Shown one piece after another: positions 30,621 to 37,491 of a DNA stretch of 37,896 bases. Position 1 is the first letter of the stretch. Each line of letters begins with the position of its first letter. The stretch is from an uncultured Clostridia bacterium (lineage in GTDB: Bacteria; Bacillota; Clostridia; Christensenellales; CAG-1252). A model generated the notes under the pieces. It ran no database searches. It worked only from the letters and a program-made list of their open reading frames with translations, and was not told the origin of the DNA. A program made the position numbers and the translations under genes. Location of the stretch: assembly GCA_946626795.1 (NCBI GenBank), contig CAMOUZ010000001.1:1-37896 (forward strand). Direction: 5' to 3'.

Positions 30621-33600
30621 TTAGTTCTTTTTGCCGAACTTGACGATGCCTTTCTTGTTGAGCAAGAATAGAACAGCGCAAGCGATCAACGCCAAGAGAA
30701 TCACAGAGCCGATGACGATACCCGCAATGGCTCCACCGCTTAAACCGCCCTTTTGTGTGTTCGGAGTGATTTCAGGCTCGCTCGGAGTCGGATTTACAGG
30801 ATCATCAGGCTCTTCGGGATCAACAGGAGTTGGCATCGTGGCCTCTTCAAAGACTACCGCAAACTTCGAGAAGTGGTTCGTCTCAAACGAGACCTTGCCG
30901 TCCGCAAACGTTGCGTTCATATCCGTTTTGTTGCCTTGCGCGTCAACGTAGTAGACCTTTGCGACTTTACCTTCGGGAACAGCCGTCGTAAACGGAAGTT
31001 TGACAGATACGGTGCCGTTTGCAAAAGTCGTATTGCCGAGCGAAAGTTCGATGACCGACCGGATTCCGTCAAGACCGTCTATGCCGAAATTGGAAGTCAG
31101 GACATTTGCCGTAAGATTTGCCGCATTACCGCCGATAGCGTTTACTGCGTTTGCGTCAAACGTTAGCACGAGATCGCCTGCGCTGATTTTTACTTTGCCG
31201 GTTGCTTGTTTAGCCGCGGCAAAGAGAGCCGCGAAGTCGTTTGCAGTGCCGAGAGCCAAAGAATGCTCAAACACTTTTATGCCTTGCTCGTCGGTTGTAT
31301 AGCTGAATCCGCTTGCGGTAATGGTGCGTTGTTCTTTGTGGCTTTCGTCACGAGAGCATACACGCTCTTCAACGCCGTCCTCCGTTTCGGTTGCGGGTGT
31401 GACGACGTGCCAATCGTCCCAGTCGTGACCGAGCGCCTCCAAAATGCCGTATTCGTCAAGATTTTCAATGAGAAGTTGGCAATTCGCGTCCTCAAAATAC
31501 TTGTTGCAATCCGTGCAGTGGTAGTAGGCTTTTTTGCCCGCCGCCGTGCAAGTCGGATCGACTTGAGCCGTTAGTGTCACGTGTTCGTGGTCGCAATCCT
31601 GAACAGGAATAACAGTGTTTTCACTGCGTCTTTCGTGGCAAACGGAACATTCTTCGTGTTTGATACCGGTTGCCGTCTTGGTTGCGGCTGTATCAACAAT
31701 CCATTGCCAATTGTGCGCAAGTTTGTCGATCTTGCCGTCTCCTGCTTTCCAAGCGTTAAGATCTGCGATTTCGTGCTCGCCGAGCGCGTCCGTAAAGCTC
31801 TTGCCGCATTGAGAACAAGTGTAATATGCTTGAACGCCGTATGCCGAGCAGGTGGCGGGAACTTCGCCGACTGATTCAAGGTGCTTGTGGAATGCGTCGA
31901 TAACGAGCGATTCGGGTTCTACTTCATAGTATTCAGTTTCATCTTGGACGAATTTCTTGTGGCAAACGGAGCATTCAAAGTGCGCGTGATTTCCGTCCGT
32001 GGTGCAAGTTGCGGCAATTGCCGCAACTGCTTGATAGTTGTGACCTGCCTTGATAACGAGCGTGGACGGATCGGCGCATTCTACCCAATGGTTTGCCGTG
32101 TCCTCCACATAATATTTGTCGTATCCGCCGAGCGTAAAGTGCTTGTGCGCTCTCATACCGTCCTCCGTGCAGGTTGCGGCTTGGGAAATAAGCGGAAGTC
32201 CGTCCGCTTCGCCCGTTCTGTAAACCCAGATATATGCGCCGGGGAGATTTTCTTCGCAGATATCGCACTTGTTGGCGATCATGATATACGCGCCGTAGGT
32301 TTCGTCGTTGCCGAAGGTGTAGGTGGTCGTTACGTGTTCGTGCGTGCAGGGAGCAACGACGGTAAGCGCGAAGTGATGACCTTCAAAAGCGCCGCGTTTG
32401 ACGGTGAATTGATCGTCAACGTTCTCGTTGACGATGATTTGATAATCCATCACGACGTACGCGTCGTAAACGCCGTTAAGCGTTTCAATGCCGAGAGCCG
32501 CAAGTTTTGCCGCGCTCGTATCAAAGATCAGGTCTTGCGCGTTGTTGTAAGGTTCCGTTCCGTCGCCGTAGTAGTCGGTTTGGGCGAAACAGATATATTC
32601 AATTTCGCCGTCCTCGTTCGGAATGCCGACGTATAGACGGTAACCCGTGACGAAGTGGTAATAACTTGACGCTTTGTGATTGCCGCGAAACCAGGTTTGC
32701 GCGGTGGTAGAAACGTCGCCGTTTGTGAAGAGATATTCGTAATTTGCGCTTGCGACGTCAATCGTTTCACTGTTTCCAAGTTCAACTGTGACGGGATCGA
32801 TTTCCGCCTCGTCTTCACGAGGGAGAACGACGATCGTAAATCTCATTCTCTCGTCGTTTTCTCTGTTATACTCTATGGATTGAACGTGGCCGAGGCCGTC
32901 ATCGTATTCGGCATAAAATCTGCCGTAATACTCAAACGTGCCTGCCATGGACGTGTCGATATACTTTTTGCCCATACCGTTGTCGTTAAGCCCCGTTTCG
33001 TTTCTCCAATCGGTGCCGATAGACTTCTCGAAGTCGGTTGCATTGCCGTCGGTTGCCTCGAAGCCGATAAGGAACACGTCGCCCAAGTGACATACGAGGG
33101 TGTGCTCGTCGTTGTCGAGCATATAGTCGGAATTGCCTTCCGCAAAGGATACCGAAAGACCGCTCGTAAGGTCGGCGTTAAGCACCGTGCCGTCTTTGAT
33201 GACGAATTTGGCGGCGTCGGAATTGACGGAGCCTGCCGCGTTGGATACAACGCAGCGGTAATACGTGCCGTTGGTCGCAACGCTTCTGTCAACGAGATAG
33301 TTGAAAGCATTGGCACCCTCGATATTCGCCCAAGTAATGCCGTCTTCGGAAGATTGCCATTGATAGGTCAGCGTGCCTTGCTTTGTGCTTGCATAAACGG
33401 CGATCGCGTGCGTGTTGTCGGCTTTTGCAAGATTTGCGCCCTGCGGTTGCGTGGTGATGACAGGCTTCGGCAAGTCGATGAAACTGACGGAAACGTCCTC
33501 GGTGTTGGCGTTTCTCTTGTAGCCGTTTTTGGTGCCCGTCACTTGGCAGCGCACGATGAGCGGATCGGCATTCGTTGTTGCACGGGAGATCGTGAGGGTA

Positions 33601-35324
33601 GCCGTGTCCGCATTAGCGAAGGTATAACCGTTTTTCGTGCCGTTTTCGATCGCCTTGTAAAGCGGTGTGCCTTCCGCATACGCCCAGACGTAATACCATT
33701 GATAGGTCACGCTATCGAAATAGTTTGCGTTGTCAACGGTCGCGCCGATCTGAACGTCATAGCCTTTCACTTCTTCTATTTCCGTAGGATTCGAGAGTTT
33801 TGCGACAGGGGAATTATAATCAACGACAGAATATGTAATTTCATCGGAATATTCCCAAACCGAATACAAATTACGGTTTACAAAACGCACGCCGACGCGC
33901 AAAGTTTTTTCGGCTATCTCGGCAGAGCCCGGATAATACGTTGCTTTCGTTGCATAATTGATATTCTGCCATTCGTTGCCGACAAGTTGTTGCCATTGAT
34001 ATTCCGCGCGGATGTCATTGCCGTTTTTATTGTTTTTGGTAGAATATTTCGCTTCTAATTTCGGGTTTTGTCCGATTGATACGCTGATATTTCCCGTCTG
34101 TCCCGAATATGCAACTGCCAAATCCGCAGGCGCGGCAGGAGTAATGTTTTGAGAAACGCGGTCGCTTTCAAAATAACGAACTGCCCCTGCTTTTTCAGAA
34201 GCAAATACTGCATAATACGTCGCATAGTTTGACCCGAACGGAACCGTGTCCTTATAATAGTATTCGGACGTAGTCACTATTTTTTCAAACGAACCGCCGT
34301 TCAGACTTCTGTACCAAGATACGGAAATATTGTTCGGGAACGCATTCCAAACGTCATAACTTGCTTCGGGCTTCAATTCTACGCTGACGCCTTTTGTCGG
34401 ATCGAAATCATCTGCCGTCACGTCATTGTTCAAAACTTCACCGATCCTAATACCGGAATTGATTGAAGCCGGCGTTGTGGAAGGAACGTTGAGCGAACCA
34501 TACCACGCCGTGCCCTGCGATATGCTTTTAGGTTGGTAATTTGACAAATTGAATGTTTGCGCCTTCGGCAAATCAACGTCGCCCAGCGTTGCTTGTTGGC
34601 TTGTCGTTTTGATACTGAAATCGCTTCCTTTGCCGGTAGCGCTTAAATCTCGAACGCCAAGTGTGCCAATTTTACCACCGGACATCAATACAGTCGATCC
34701 TTTGTAATGGATATAATCCGATATCTTCATATTGCCTTCGATTTTGACGGTGGCGCTTGCGGCAGAGAAATCTTCTAAGCCGATATAATAATCCGTGATT
34801 CTTTCAATAGAACCGATGGCATATTCGGAAATGTTCAATTTGGCATTTATGCCAAGAGCAATGGTGCCGAATTGAATCAATCTCTTTATGGTGCCGAACA
34901 TTGAAAACGTTCTGACATCGATATTGAGCGTTCCGCCATCAACATCGATTTGACTAAATCTGAATTGTCCACCGCCGATGCTGTCAATGACAGTCAGCGA
35001 GCCATACACTTTAAGGTAAAAACAATCATCGCGAGTGGAATAGATTTTGTGTCCGTTGAGATCGAGCGTGATATTATCGCCGGCTTTTATGTCAAAATTA
35101 CCGTTCGGATCACCGATACCGGTTGAAACATAATAGTCTTTTTCGAGTACGTGCGTACCGCTACCGCGCAACAAGTTTTGAAGCGCATAATGATCGGCGC
35201 TTTCCGCATACGCGGTCAGAGTCGTGGCGGGCAGGAGCGCAAATATCATTGTGAGCATCATCGCTATACCGAGCAAAACGGATACTACGCTTGCCATCTT
35301 TTTTCTTGCCTTTTGGTTTGTCAT
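30621..35324 (-). CDS. giant membrane-anchored surface protein (1567 aa)
   Basis: AAAGGAGA RBS and a signal peptide ending TLTAYA. Beta-helix-like N-terminal region (ITLDLNGHKI, GSLTVIDS). Three Ig-like modules with a YQWQ/YQWY signature (for example LTYQWQSSEDGITWANIEGA...YYRCVVSNAAGSVNS). Five CxxC modules and a beta-sandwich ending HFSKFAVVF. Then a Pro-rich stalk and a C-terminal TM helix plus a KKGIVKFGKKN tail. There is no LPXTG motif. Confidence 0.85.
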   Translation of the reverse strand: MTNQKARKKMASVVSVLLGIAMMLTMIFALLPATTLTAYAESADHYALQNLLRGSGTHVLEKDYYVSTGIGDPNGNFDIKAGDNITLDLNGHKIYSTRDDCFYLKVYGSLTVIDSIGGGQFRFSQIDVDGGTLNIDVRTFSMFGTIKRLIQFGTIALGINAKLNISEYAIGSIERITDYYIGLEDFSAASATVKIEGNMKISDYIHYKGSTVLMSGGKIGTLGVRDLSATGKGSDFSIKTTSQQATLGDVDLPKAQTFNLSNYQPKSISQGTAWYGSLNVPSTTPASINSGIRIGEVLNNDVTADDFDPTKGVSVELKPEASYDVWNAFPNNISVSWYRSLNGGSFEKIVTTSEYYYKDTVPFGSNYATYYAVFASEKAGAVRYFESDRVSQNITPAAPADLAVAYSGQTGNISVSIGQNPKLEAKYSTKNNKNGNDIRAEYQWQQLVGNEWQNINYATKATYYPGSAEIAEKTLRVGVRFVNRNLYSVWEYSDEITYSVVDYNSPVAKLSNPTEIEEVKGYDVQIGATVDNANYFDSVTYQWYYVWAYAEGTPLYKAIENGTKNGYTFANADTATLTISRATTNADPLIVRCQVTGTKNGYKRNANTEDVSVSFIDLPKPVITTQPQGANLAKADNTHAIAVYASTKQGTLTYQWQSSEDGITWANIEGANAFNYLVDRSVATNGTYYRCVVSNAAGSVNSDAAKFVIKDGTVLNADLTSGLSVSFAEGNSDYMLDNDEHTLVCHLGDVFLIGFEATDGNATDFEKSIGTDWRNETGLNDNGMGKKYIDTSMAGTFEYYGRFYAEYDDGLGHVQSIEYNRENDERMRFTIVVLPREDEAEIDPVTVELGNSETIDVASANYEYLFTNGDVSTTAQTWFRGNHKASSYYHFVTGYRLYVGIPNEDGEIEYICFAQTDYYGDGTEPYNNAQDLIFDTSAAKLAALGIETLNGVYDAYVVMDYQIIVNENVDDQFTVKRGAFEGHHFALTVVAPCTHEHVTTTYTFGNDETYGAYIMIANKCDICEENLPGAYIWVYRTGEADGLPLISQAATCTEDGMRAHKHFTLGGYDKYYVEDTANHWVECADPSTLVIKAGHNYQAVAAIAATCTTDGNHAHFECSVCHKKFVQDETEYYEVEPESLVIDAFHKHLESVGEVPATCSAYGVQAYYTCSQCGKSFTDALGEHEIADLNAWKAGDGKIDKLAHNWQWIVDTAATKTATGIKHEECSVCHERRSENTVIPVQDCDHEHVTLTAQVDPTCTAAGKKAYYHCTDCNKYFEDANCQLLIENLDEYGILEALGHDWDDWHVVTPATETEDGVEERVCSRDESHKEQRTITASGFSYTTDEQGIKVFEHSLALGTANDFAALFAAAKQATGKVKISAGDLVLTFDANAVNAIGGNAANLTANVLTSNFGIDGLDGIRSVIELSLGNTTFANGTVSVKLPFTTAVPEGKVAKVYYVDAQGNKTDMNATFADGKVSFETNHFSKFAVVFEEATMPTPVDPEEPDDPVNPTPSEPEITPNTQKGGLSGGAIAGIVIGSVILLALIACAVLFLLNKKGIVKFGKKN

Positions 35325-35359: not shown

Positions 35360-35388
35360 ATTGTAGTTTTTTTCTTTAGAAAAAGAAA
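35360..35388 (-). promoter_or_regulatory. candidate promoter of the giant surface-protein gene (good -10, poor -35)
   Basis: The minus strand has TACAAT at 35365-35360. The -35 position reads TTTCTT, so the promoter may depend on an activator. Confidence 0.4.
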
Positions 35389-35390
35389 TA

Positions 35391-35428
35391 GTTAGAGCGG
35401 CCAAAAACGCATGGCCGCTCGGCTAAAC
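35391..35428. promoter_or_regulatory. dyad element A (GCGGCC-N10-GGCCGC with flanking CGGCTAA); also a possible terminator of the LuxR-type gene
   Basis: gttagagcggccaaaaacgcatggccgctcggctaaac. 24 of 34 aligned positions are identical to element B at 37454-37491. The proximal half-site is 32 nt from the -10. Confidence 0.5.
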
Positions 35429-35565: not shown

Positions 35566-37371
35566 TCAAAAGTAATCTTTGTAGCGAAGGATAAGATCGG
35601 TACGTGACGAACAAGCAAGCTTTCTGTAAATATTCATCAGATCGAACTTGATCGTTCCAACTGAAAAATGCAGTTCTTCGGCAATTTGTTCTCTCGTTTT
35701 GCCTGAAAGCGTCAAGGCGACGATCTTGTATTCTCTCTCGGTCAGCGTGTCGATGCGCTCTTTTTCGGTCATAACAGGCGCAACGGGGTGCTGTTCTTCC
35801 GTTTCCGACGTTTCGGCTCCCGTTTCTTGCGCTTCGGGGGCTTTTACATTTGTTTTTCTCTTCTTTCTGAACACCACGAAGAGAACGACGAACGACGCGG
35901 AGAGCGCCGCGCCTATCACGACGAGAACGATCACAAGCGTAAGATTGATTTGCGGTTTTGCGGGAATTTCGTTGTATTCTCCGATGGCGCAGGATTGCGT
36001 TGCACCCGCAAATGCGCTGTGCCAACTTCGATACACGTTTGCAGGGACGTAAATATCCGCGTCGCTACCTTTTACGGCGTAAACGCTTTCTCCATCTGCG
36101 ATGTTCAGATCGTTTATTGCACCGCTGTCGAGCGCTTCGGTCGCCGCAGCGATATAATTATAAGCAGAAGGAGAAGTTTCGTATTCATCGTCGCCAATTA
36201 CCATACAGCCGCGCAGAACGATATAGCCGAGAAGTCCGTCCGTCTCGTAAAAGCCGAACGTGCCTTGGTCCGGCGCCGTATTGTTCGCCGCTTTTGAAAA
36301 CAGAAGATTGATTTGTCCGCCGTTATATTTCTTCGTCCAATAGGCATAGGGCTGTGTATAGAGAATACTTCCTTTATCCATCGCCGTGTTGCCATAGAAC
36401 TCGCACCCTACAAAATCTATAGGTTGTCCCTGCAAGCTGTCAATGAACACCGCGCCGCCGTCTTCCGCTCTGTTGTTTTCGATACGACAGTTTTTTATCA
36501 GCATACTACCGTTTCCCGCAAATGCGGAAGTGAGCGCAAGCCCGCCGCCGTATTTGGTTTCATTGCCCGTGATAACGCAATCGGCCATATCGAGGTCTAC
36601 GCCGCCGATATAAACGCCGCCGCCACGGTCTTCAGATCCGAGATCGGCAAACGGATAGAATGCATTGTCTGAAACGTTGCAGCTTTTTATTTCGGCTTTT
36701 CCGTTGCTGATGACAAAACCGCCCGCCGCACCTACGGTGTTATGATAAAAATTACTGTTTTCGATTTTTGTCGTCAATTTGTCGTTGAACACTTTGACCG
36801 TGCCGTGTTTTGCCACGTTGTCATGAAAATCGCAGTTTTCTATCAAGAGCGTCTGCGCTTCGTCACGAAACTTATTGCCAAAATAGAGCGCGCTGCCTTC
36901 AAGCGACGCATATCCCTTGATTTCAACGTTTTTCAAAACAAGATTCGTATAGCCCCAATCCGCCGTGATACAGCGTTTTTCTTCTCGTTCACCGTCAAAC
37001 ACTTCTTCAAAGGTTTTATCCGTTCCGTCAGGCTCTTCATAACAGCCGCCGTCCAAAATGATGTTTTCAAAGGTGACGGCATTCGTTTCACCCGCAACGT
37101 TCGGACTGATGATTTTGAAATGTGCGTTTTTTATCGTCGCTTTCATTCCGTTGCCTCTGATTGTCAATCCGTAGTTGATTTGAACGACGGTGTCTTCGTC
37201 AAAGGTTATGTCATTCGCAAGGATCAAAGTTTCTTTGTTTTGGAGCGAGAAAAAAAACTCTGCCGTATCACGTACAACTGCGCCTTGCTGTTCTTTGTTG
37301 CTCGCACACCCGACAAACAATGCCAACAATGCAATTACGAACATTAAAACCGCCGCTATTCTTTTAGCCAT
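35566..37371 (-). CDS. membrane-tethered LuxR/GerE-family transcriptional regulator with an exported beta-helix ectodomain (601 aa)
   Basis: N-terminal signal peptide MAKRIAAVLMFVIALLALFVGC. About 450 aa of PbH1-like rungs (LVLKNVEIKG, LLIENCDFHDN, KIENSNFYHN, EIKSCNVSDN, ADCVITGNET, LIKNCRIENNRA, FVGCEFYGN). TM helix INLTLVIVLVVIGAALSASFVVLFVVF followed by RKKRK, then an acidic linker. C-terminal HTH LTEREYKIVALTLSGKTREQIAEELHFSVGTIKFDLMNIYRKL. I prefer ATG 37371 over the TTG at 37389. Confidence 0.85.
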   Translation of the reverse strand: MAKRIAAVLMFVIALLALFVGCASNKEQQGAVVRDTAEFFFSLQNKETLILANDITFDEDTVVQINYGLTIRGNGMKATIKNAHFKIISPNVAGETNAVTFENIILDGGCYEEPDGTDKTFEEVFDGEREEKRCITADWGYTNLVLKNVEIKGYASLEGSALYFGNKFRDEAQTLLIENCDFHDNVAKHGTVKVFNDKLTTKIENSNFYHNTVGAAGGFVISNGKAEIKSCNVSDNAFYPFADLGSEDRGGGVYIGGVDLDMADCVITGNETKYGGGLALTSAFAGNGSMLIKNCRIENNRAEDGGAVFIDSLQGQPIDFVGCEFYGNTAMDKGSILYTQPYAYWTKKYNGGQINLLFSKAANNTAPDQGTFGFYETDGLLGYIVLRGCMVIGDDEYETSPSAYNYIAAATEALDSGAINDLNIADGESVYAVKGSDADIYVPANVYRSWHSAFAGATQSCAIGEYNEIPAKPQINLTLVIVLVVIGAALSASFVVLFVVFRKKRKTNVKAPEAQETGAETSETEEQHPVAPVMTEKERIDTLTEREYKIVALTLSGKTREQIAEELHFSVGTIKFDLMNIYRKLACSSRTDLILRYKDYF

Positions 37372-37422
37372 AAGTACGATTCCTTTCAATTACGGAAACC
37401 TCTAGTATGCAAGAATAAATTT

Positions 37423-37450
37423 ATTATACCATAATATTCCTATAAATCAA
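37423..37450 (-). promoter_or_regulatory. promoter of the LuxR-type regulator gene
   Basis: The minus strand reads TTGATT (37450-37445), a 16-nt spacer, then TGG-TATAAT (extended -10, 37428-37423). Confidence 0.75.
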
Positions 37451-37453
37451 TGT

Positions 37454-37491
37454 CAGGGCGGCTAAACCTCTTTGGCCGCGCGGCTAATAAT
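37454..37491. promoter_or_regulatory. dyad element B (GCGGCT-N10-GGCCGC with flanking CGGCTAA)
   Basis: cagggcggctaaacctctttggccgcgcggctaataat. The proximal half-site is 30 nt from the -10. No T-run follows on the minus strand, so it is unlikely to be a terminator. Confidence 0.5.

Follow-up and report, generated by a model that had tools for sequence, protein, structure and literature searches.

The stretch analysed here (the window) comprises 37,896 nucleotides (nt) of contig CAMOUZ010000001.1 (GenBank assembly GCA_946626795.1) from an uncultured Clostridia bacterium. Towards its far end, two genes lie one after the other on the reverse strand. The first encodes a 601-residue protein that, from its domain order, is a predicted transmembrane one-component transcription regulator, and the second, downstream of it, encodes a giant surface protein that is presumed to be its target. 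A 28-nt three-part sequence element lies upstream of each gene and is proposed to be the operator. A preliminary description of the regulator had been made from the DNA letters alone, and its claims are taken up below where results bear on them.

Domain order and structure of the regulator

The start of the regulator open reading frame (ORF) was assigned to the ATG at position 37371, which is preceded by an AAAGGA ribosome-binding site 9 nt upstream and coincides with the Met at which the family alignment begins. An in-frame TTG at 37389 was considered as an alternative start and rejected, since the family alignment did not support it. Hydropathy analysis of the protein revealed two hydrophobic segments only, residues 1−25 (ending LFVGC) and residues 477−501, the latter being followed by RKKRK. 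The N-terminus has the lipobox layout of a bacterial lipoprotein, with MAKR, a hydrophobic run and then LFVGC, in which G21 and C22 were invariant across an alignment of 16 homologues; cleavage and lipidation are predicted. Processing of the lipobox would leave the ectodomain anchored in the membrane twice, through the N-terminal lipid and through the C-terminal transmembrane (TM) helix, whereas in distant clades with ordinary signal peptides the N-terminus would be free.

Searches against Pfam identified two domains, Beta_helix (PF13229) at residues 174−332, with 47 bits against a cut-off of 25.9, and the LuxR-type helix-turn-helix (HTH) domain GerE (PF00196) at residues 541−595, with 48 bits against a cut-off of 23.5. 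No match to a receiver (Response_reg, PF00072), Autoind_bind (PF03472), winged-helix (Trans_reg_C), TPR, Reg_prop or Y_Y_Y domain was obtained in Pfam even at E ≤ 1. The match to NCBIfam response-regulator and LuxR models was confined to the C-terminal ~60 residues, and the response-regulator models scored far below their cut-offs. Among PDB sequences, those nearest to the HTH were ComA, LiaR, VraR, DesR and GerE, with ComA the closest (2krf, E = 2e-7). The ectodomain comprises the beta-helix and a conserved juxtamembrane segment, ADIxVPxxVYxxW...IG. The linker between the TM helix and the HTH is 39 residues long and contains 8 D/E and 8 K/R, five of these K/R being the RKKRK cluster itself, so that it is acidic past the basic cluster. 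In the 16-homologue alignment most of the HTH was invariant, the TM segment was kept only as a hydrophobic stretch and the linker varied in both length and sequence. Based on the signal with its lipobox and on the positive-inside cluster, we infer a topology in which the beta-helix would be exported and the HTH would remain in the cytoplasm.

Table 1. Positions of the genes, domains and sites discussed, in window numbering unless a related locus (L number) is named
Feature	Position	Strand	Basis or remark
Regulator gene, 601 aa plus stop	35566..37371	−	Uninterrupted ORF; domains, full-length homologues, structure model
Predicted lipobox signal peptide, residues 1−22, MAKRIAAVLMFVIALLALFVGC	37306..37371	−	Hydropathy and alignment; Cys22, predicted lipidation site
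Predicted exported ectodomain, residues 23−476	35944..37305	−	Pfam Beta_helix, AlphaFold2, Foldseek
Single TM helix, residues 477−501	35869..35943	−	Hydropathy peak 2.9; helix 477−503 in AlphaFold2 model
RKKRK (positive-inside), then acidic, disordered, length-variable linker, residues 502−540	35752..35868	−	Sequence, pLDDT, alignment
GerE HTH, residues 541−595	35587..35751	−	Pfam, Foldseek, PDB sequence matches
Candidate operator upstream of regulator gene, TAGCCG-CG-CGGCCA-AAGAGGTT-TAGCCG	37459..37486	−	Pattern scan; 6/8 lineages
Regulator promoter	37423..37450	−	Consensus match: −35 TTGATT 37445−37450, 16-nt spacer, TG-extended −10 TATAAT 37423−37428
Presumed target gene, 1567-aa surface protein	30621..35324	−	ORF, Pfam, homologous genes in relatives
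Candidate operator upstream of giant gene, TAGCCG-AG-CGGCCA-TGCGTTTT-TGGCCG	35398..35425	−	Pattern scan; 8/8 lineages
Giant-gene −10-like hexamer TACAAT	35360..35365	−	Exactly 32 nt past third half-site; no good −35
Inverted repeat, T-tract then A-tract, TTCCTTTTT-N4-AAAAAGAA	35366−35397	−	Between operator and giant-gene −10
Non-coding block, ~110 nt	37586−37700	−	Just upstream of the regulator's operator
Terminator-like hairpin of non-coding block	37586−37613
Two-gene module	30450−37500		G+C content
Giant ORF, 2673 aa	5774−13795	+	No Pfam matches, no operator upstream
Giant ORF, 2132 aa	21663−28061	+	No Pfam matches, no operator upstream
Ordinary chromosomal genes	1−4000, 14019−14094, 15875−18608		DAHP synthase, prephenate dehydrogenase, EPSP synthase, chorismate synthase, tRNA-Ala(CGC), argininosuccinate synthase and lyase, Vut_1 transporter
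Lipoproteins downstream of distant regulators	L020 2816−4348; L015 3117−3341		Cys/His motif at start
~800-aa regulator variant	L017 4201−6639 (P0030); also P0035, P0036, P0038, P0046		HisKA_7TM and GerE

To examine the fold, an AlphaFold2 model was built on the 16 homologues (mean predicted local distance difference test score, pLDDT, 76). It comprised a confident beta-helix of strand–turn repeats over residues ~30−395, the pLDDT of the ectodomain being mostly 80−97, followed by the TM helix, a disordered region at residues 501−532 (pLDDT < 50) and a helical HTH at residues 536−597. When compared with the PDB using Foldseek, the C-terminus matched the DNA-binding domains of VraR, LiaR and NarL, with a template-modelling score of 0.81−0.89 and a root-mean-square deviation of 1.0−1.7 Å. 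The ectodomain grouped with the right-handed beta-helices of AlgE4, AlgG, Pel9A, L. reuteri SRRP and tailspikes. The Foldseek probability was 1.0 for AlgE4, AlgG and Pel9A; by their other measures the ectodomain matches were weak (best E = 5e-4, template-modelling score 0.3−0.46, 10−14% identity). A phmmer search of PDB sequences with the ectodomain returned nothing at E ≤ 1, placing the likeness at the level of the fold only.

The top fold matches include the mannuronan C5-epimerases AlgE4 and AlgG, the pectate lyase Pel9A and the adhesins SRRP and PfbA, and would fit a protein in which the ectodomain mainly has an enzymatic (polysaccharide lyase, epimerase or hydrolase) or adhesive role and the HTH is secondary. 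This explanation is considered very improbable in view of how weak these matches are, of the lack of any PDB structure matching by sequence and of the pattern of conservation. Across 28 superfamily members of 22−67% identity, the invariant ectodomain residues were the Asn of the ladder and Gly only, and no charged or catalytic-type residue was invariant. The DPHD-type motif of epimerases was not seen in the regulator sequence. Because only the Asn ladder and Gly are invariant, a sensor scaffold with clade-specific surfaces is suggested in preference to a conserved active site, which argues for the ectodomain being a structural scaffold that probably serves as a sensor rather than an enzyme.

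The layout given in the preliminary description, namely a lipobox-like signal peptide, an exported beta-helix ectodomain of about 450 residues, one TM helix with a positive-inside RKKRK, a complete C-terminal GerE/LuxR HTH and no receiver, autoinducer-binding or other input domain, was thus recovered by the alignments, hydropathy, Pfam, AlphaFold2 and Foldseek. The acidic linker in that description is disordered and acidic past the basic cluster, but is shorter than the ~45 residues stated. The description had also raised the caveat of a chimeric fusion, in which an assembly chimera or frameshift would have joined an exported protein to a cytoplasmic regulator. This was checked by conservation. 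The same continuous ORF was found in 21 homologues of 52−93% identity from independent ENA, JGI, Logan and NCBI assemblies, and in ~70 more distant clusters. The 21 homologues share the two Pfam domains and, apart from a few fragments, a length of ~600 residues. Since the fusion is full length across independent samples, assemblies and assemblers, such an artefact is excluded for practical purposes, and the probability left to it is negligible. The genome scan yielded five genomes and the metagenome scan three further usable loci; the named genomes carrying homologues were all metagenome-assembled genomes of rumen Clostridia (goat, yak, sheep and cattle).

The giant surface-protein gene and the proposed three-part operator

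The giant protein begins with a signal peptide, contains Cys/His-rich repeats and carries a C-terminal TM anchor whose tail is rich in K; no Pfam family matched it. In relatives for which downstream DNA was available, the regulator gene was always followed by a giant gene without Pfam matches (1540−2912 aa), and the regulator-adjacent giant proteins were homologous to that of the window (79, 62, 54 and 46% identity). The outer flanks of this two-gene module differed among lineages (FeoAB, ABC/CbiQ/TruA and others), while the two proteins diverged in parallel, with identities of 67, 59 and 39% for the regulator and of 79, 62 and 54% for the giant protein.

The module had a G+C content of 0.479 against 0.545 for the remainder of the window, and a serine recombinase gene was found near it in L009. 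The low G+C content, the differing flanks and this nearby recombinase gene suggest that the module moves horizontally. Within the giant protein, residues ~990−1330 contain repeated short Cys/His modules, for example AGHNY...ATCTTDGNHAHFECSVCHKKF, for which the only Pfam match was a faint one to RYYR-CCHC. Two lipoproteins encoded downstream of distant regulators start with a similar motif (CGHTHTF...DCNTCGY; CGHQHNY...HHWHDC), and no homology was detected by BLAST.

The dyad that the preliminary description reported as shared by the two genes was resolved as the 28-nt three-part element TRGCCG-N2-CGGCYA-N8-TRGCCG, consisting of a 6-2-6 inverted repeat and a third half-site. The 14-mer TRGCCGNNCGGCYA occurred only twice in the window, in both cases within the operators, against 0.25 occurrences expected by chance. 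An unbiased scan for any X6-N2-rc(X6)-N8-X6, where rc is the reverse complement, returned exactly two promoter sites in 37.9 kb (shuffle mean 0.3), and in related loci the same scan returned 1−2 sites each, always at the equivalent positions. The element is found upstream of the giant gene in all eight lineages and of the regulator gene in six. A fourth half-site beyond the third, either 2-nt inverted or 5-nt direct, was not recognisable by eye in the lineage sequences.

The spacing to the core promoters was also conserved. At the giant-gene promoters, including those of L004, L007, L010 and L011, the distance from the third half-site to the hexamer (TATAAT, TACAAT or TATATT) was 32 nt, and at the regulator promoters it was 30−32 nt to TATAAT. 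For the window's regulator gene, 30 nt separate the end of the third half-site from the downstream −10 and 8 nt separate it from the −35. The possibility that the dyad of the second and third half-sites is mainly a terminator of the regulator gene was rejected, based on the separate terminators of other lineages, the copy upstream of the regulator gene and the change of half-site with regulator clade. In L004, L010 and L023, a separate canonical terminator stands between the stop codon of the regulator gene and the element; because of this, the element is taken to be promoter-associated and more than a terminator.

In more divergent relatives the half-site differed. The regulator of L013 (P0022) is 39% identical to that of the window and has the recognition helix FSENTIKKDLTSIYQKL compared to FSVGTIKFDLMNIYRKL in the window. 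The unbiased scan of L013 gave a single match in 17.8 kb, TACCCA-AA-TGGGTA-N8-TACCCA, and the regulator gene's TATAAT follows it at 31 nt. At a divergently oriented 1441-aa gene, whose product is 54% identical to the giant protein of the window, a degenerate copy precedes the TAAAAT by 32 nt. TACCCA itself occurs five times in the 259-nt intergenic region and three times in the other 17 kb. In other clades, 3−4 copies of a 6−7-mer peculiar to the clade (GTAGCC in L020, TGGTCC in L015, TCACCC in L017 and TACGCC in L014) precede the gene just downstream of the regulator. Between the window's clade and L013, the geometry of the putative operator stays constant while the half-site changes with the recognition helix of the regulator. 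The putative link of the regulator to the shared dyad and to the adjacent giant surface protein, as the preliminary description had it, is supported by synteny and by operator conservation.

The genes downstream of the L020, L015, L017 and L014 regulators encode smaller secreted proteins or lipoproteins, and none of them is giant. A pairing with the giant protein throughout the superfamily was accordingly rejected, as the products adjoining distant members have no BLAST similarity to it. A domain shared by the regulator and the giant protein was likewise ruled out by BLASTP, which detected no similarity between the two (best E = 0.35, in the TM region). These results bear on an explanation in which the beta-helix monitors either the state of the cell wall or how the giant protein is exported, folded or engaged, forming a feedback loop on display. 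Co-inheritance of the two genes as a module with variable flanks, their parallel divergence and the predicted anchoring of both proteins in the same membrane would all be expected if this were so. With unrelated, smaller neighbours beside the distant family members and no similarity or common domain between the ectodomain and the giant protein, it is judged unlikely.

The arrangement resembles that of ComA of Bacillus subtilis, whose DNA-binding domain is the closest solved one by sequence and shares the VraR/LiaR/NarL fold. In ComA promoters an inverted repeat is accompanied by a third, downstream recognition element, which activation requires (PMC4797271). The element described here has the same ComA-type geometry, with a hexamer inverted repeat and a third copy downstream of it, all upstream of the core promoter. 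The ComA half-site is TTGCGG with a 4-nt spacer, compared to TRGCCG here, where the spacer is 2 nt and the third site follows after 8 nt. A 2-bp spacer is also found in the '7-2-7' sites of NarL. ComA and NarL both possess a receiver domain, absent from the present regulator, and are soluble response regulators.

GerE-family proteins can repress as well as activate. A repressor or autorepressor, in which the three-part site hinders RNA polymerase or its upstream-element contacts until the signal relieves repression, would suit the regulator's own promoter, where the third half-site is 8 nt from a good −35 and the core looks strong (TTGATT-16-TGgTATAAT). The position of the site, wholly upstream of the −35 at a fixed distance, and the giant-gene promoter, which has no recognisable −35, point the other way, as do the ComA promoters, in which the same layout serves activation, and BguR (see below), which is an activator. 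Repression is therefore rated as a rather poor prospect.

Two further features of the non-coding DNA were observed. In the close clade, the spacer and −35 region of the giant-gene promoter are taken up by a second conserved inverted repeat, a T-tract followed by an A-tract, which is not present in L013; this repeat could be the site of a second factor or an intrinsic DNA bend. The non-coding block upstream of the regulator's operator, which has a terminator-like hairpin at its end, was also found in L001, L002 and L009/L010 but not in L003, L007 and L011. Its conservation extends to L009 although the regulator there is only 58% identical. Rfam searches of the whole window (gathering threshold) and of positions 37400−37896 (E ≤ 1) returned nothing relevant to this block, and it contained neither compensatory pairs (RNAalifold) nor a conserved ORF. 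Possible explanations of the block are a small RNA and the end of a mobile segment.

Relation to known regulators and the wider family

Proteins that combine a predicted TM segment with a predicted DNA-binding domain form a recognised and widespread class, the transmembrane transcription regulators (TTRs), in which GerE ranks third in frequency among the DNA-binding domains (4,943 proteins, 9.8%) (PMC10269533). With TM 477−501 and GerE 541−595, the regulator falls within this definition, the sensor being predicted to lie outside the cell.

The nearest parallel in design is BguR, the beta-glucan utilisation regulator of Formosa agariphila, for which deletion and RNA-seq demonstrated activation of the neighbouring laminarin locus, and which consists of a signal peptide, a periplasmic beta-propeller and Y_Y_Y sensor, one TM helix, a linker and, at the C-terminus, a GerE domain (bioRxiv 10.64898/2026.01.10.698779). 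The two proteins share this order and polarity, the PF00196 domain, the lack of phosphorelay domains and a proposed action at the membrane; both are encoded beside their actual or presumed target genes, with a conserved motif in the intergenic region. They differ in the sensor, which is a tandem beta-propeller and Y_Y_Y in BguR and a beta-helix here, and in the linker, which is alpha-helical in BguR and disordered here. BguR is a 940-aa protein of a Gram-negative member of the Bacteroidota, compared to 601 aa, a Clostridia host and a lipobox here. It controls a SusCD-type polysaccharide (beta-glucan) utilisation locus, while the present regulator has a single presumed target, the giant surface protein, the other neighbours being housekeeping genes. 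The regulator thus resembles BguR in design and is not a member of the BguR family.

The authors of the BguR study cite as the only comparable case SusR of Bacteroides thetaiotaomicron starch utilisation, which in their description is membrane-associated, lacks phosphorelay domains and acts as a one-component regulator of a glycan-utilisation locus, by a mechanism said to be unresolved (bioRxiv 10.64898/2026.01.10.698779). SusR has another sensor domain and belongs to another phylum; its likeness to the regulator lies in the description given of it, and no SusR-named NCBIfam model matched the regulator. The TTR class, BguR and SusR are precedents, so the statement in the preliminary description that the protein could not be matched to any known system does not hold. 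The uniqueness of polarity that it implied was likewise overturned, as BguR and SusR of Bacteroidota share that polarity.

ToxR, TcpP and CadC are also single-pass membrane one-component regulators that bind DNA from the membrane (PMC10269533). Their polarity is opposite: the winged helix (OmpR/Trans_reg_C) is N-terminal and cytoplasmic, and the sensor is C-terminal and periplasmic. In cellulolytic Clostridia, the RsgI/SigI systems also employ a single-pass membrane protein with an exported carbohydrate-related domain to control genes for surface and extracellular proteins. RsgI, however, is an anti-sigma factor with an N-terminal cytoplasmic domain, again the opposite polarity, and acts through a partner sigma factor, whereas the present regulator carries its DNA-binding domain in the same polypeptide. 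AguR belongs to the polytopic LuxR-type membrane regulators taken up below. It appears in the TTR census (PMC10269533).

To determine how widely the architecture occurs, a profile search was made of 1.84 billion cluster representatives. It returned 58 proteins at E < 1e-30 and many more of 580−750 aa that aligned end to end. In ~70 representatives of 50%-identity clusters, a common plan was observed, with an N-terminal signal, a large ectodomain, a TM segment, a K/R cluster directly after it and a C-terminal LuxR-type HTH, the distance from the TM segment to the C-terminus being 80−145 residues. The N-terminal signal of distant members was either a lipobox or an AxA-type signal peptide. In a subgroup of ~800 aa, a beta-helix ectodomain and a GerE domain at the C-terminus are joined by about six TM helices (Pfam HisKA_7TM) instead of a single one; the beta-helix sensor has therefore been reused with a different membrane module. 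These variants resemble the polytopic LuxR-type membrane regulators of Firmicutes and Actinobacteria with a C-terminal HTH, which differ in sensing through a multi-pass membrane domain without a large exported domain.

The one NCBI name met for a family member was 'right-handed parallel beta-helix repeat-containing protein', and no paper describing a beta-helix–TM–LuxR regulator was found in literature searches. The string 'Beta_helix' was absent from the supplement text of the TTR census, which is incomplete and provides a weak negative (PMC10269533). The question raised in the preliminary description, whether the architecture was already characterised, thus has a divided answer: the TTR/GerE design has been catalogued, but no paper was found on the version with a beta-helix. 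The regulator belongs to a sizeable, unstudied Clostridial family of beta-helix-sensor transmembrane one-component regulators. The beta-helix sensor, the occurrence in Clostridia, the giant surface protein as presumed target and the operator are new, while the general design was already known from Bacteroidota.

Proposed mechanism and other features of the window

The favoured model is that of a tethered beta-helix/GerE regulator which, through the three-part operator, activates the giant gene and itself; its probability is put at roughly 0.6. The N-terminal signal, a lipoprotein signal in the window's clade, would export the beta-helix ectodomain, and the TM helix and positive-inside cluster would leave the flexible 39-residue linker and the GerE/LuxR HTH in the cytoplasm. 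A dimer of the HTH plus a further subunit or dimer would then occupy the operator, with its 6-2-6 inverted repeat and a third half-site 8 bp downstream, ~45−72 bp upstream of the inferred transcription starts of both the regulator's own promoter and that of the giant gene. Binding by the HTH is proposed because of the exclusivity of the sites, their co-variation with the recognition helix and the ComA precedent. Activation of the giant gene and positive autoregulation are likewise proposed because the site lies upstream of the −35 at a fixed spacing and the −35 of the giant gene is poor. The input may be an extracellular cue at the beta-helix, most likely a polysaccharide or other cell-surface ligand. 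As neither the TM sequence nor the linker is conserved, transmission of the signal would probably occur by ligand-dependent clustering or dimerisation and not by a defined conformational relay.

The regulator most likely works while tethered to the membrane, as has been proposed for BguR, ToxR and CadC. Regulated proteolysis of membrane regulators is, however, an established theme. The full-length protein could be an inactive membrane precursor in which a signal at the ectodomain triggers cleavage, either site-1 and then intramembrane or in the linker, so that a soluble GerE fragment of ~70−100 aa binds the operators. The linker, being disordered and variable in length, and the TM helix, which holds small residues (GAALSAS), could accommodate such cuts. 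No protease gene is conserved beside the module, however, the flanking genes being different in every lineage; the TM and linker sequences are not conserved and present no obvious recognition site; and the three regulators named above are described as acting at the membrane. Cleavage is regarded as unlikely, though not to be dismissed.

Several observations weigh against activation by a tethered sensor. The promoters and transcription starts were inferred from consensus matches only. L004 and L023, the two most divergent lineages, are without the element upstream of the regulator gene. Given its good −35 and extended −10, the regulator's own promoter may need no activator, and the site there could be neutral or repressive. 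In the window, the dyad of the second and third half-sites is followed by a T-rich stretch and could double as a terminator of the regulator transcript. The fold neighbours of the ectodomain mix enzymes with adhesins, and a lipid anchor at one end combined with a TM anchor at the other is an unusual arrangement.

A broader proposal, which is offered tentatively and as possible rather than probable, is that a large family of modular switches for sensing the outside of the cell exists in rumen and gut Clostridia. In these, a beta-helix would be connected through one TM helix or a 7TM block to a GerE HTH, each clade having its own half-site and an adjacent secreted or surface target. The window's clade would couple giant adhesin-like display to surface contact, possibly to engagement of the giant protein itself, and positive autoregulation may give bistable display in a subpopulation.

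How membrane-tethered regulators sense the outside of the cell and yet find their DNA is poorly understood, and little is known about the control of giant surface proteins in rumen and gut Clostridia. The locus, made up of a single protein, a single target gene and a 28-bp operator found at two promoters, is a compact and fully defined test case, and the natural changes between clades in recognition helix and half-site could be used for mapping specificity. Should a plant or host glycan prove to be the ligand of the beta-helix, the family would form a Gram-positive counterpart of the SusR/BguR glycan switches and a source of orthogonal parts that convert an extracellular ligand into transcription. 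The system is not categorically new, yet it is unusually complete and directly testable.

Elsewhere in the window, the chromosome is ordinary apart from two more giant ORFs (Table 1). The larger of these, of 2673 aa, showed weak similarity to the Cys/His-rich part of the target giant protein. Its predicted N-terminus is unlike a signal peptide, and the true start may lie further downstream.

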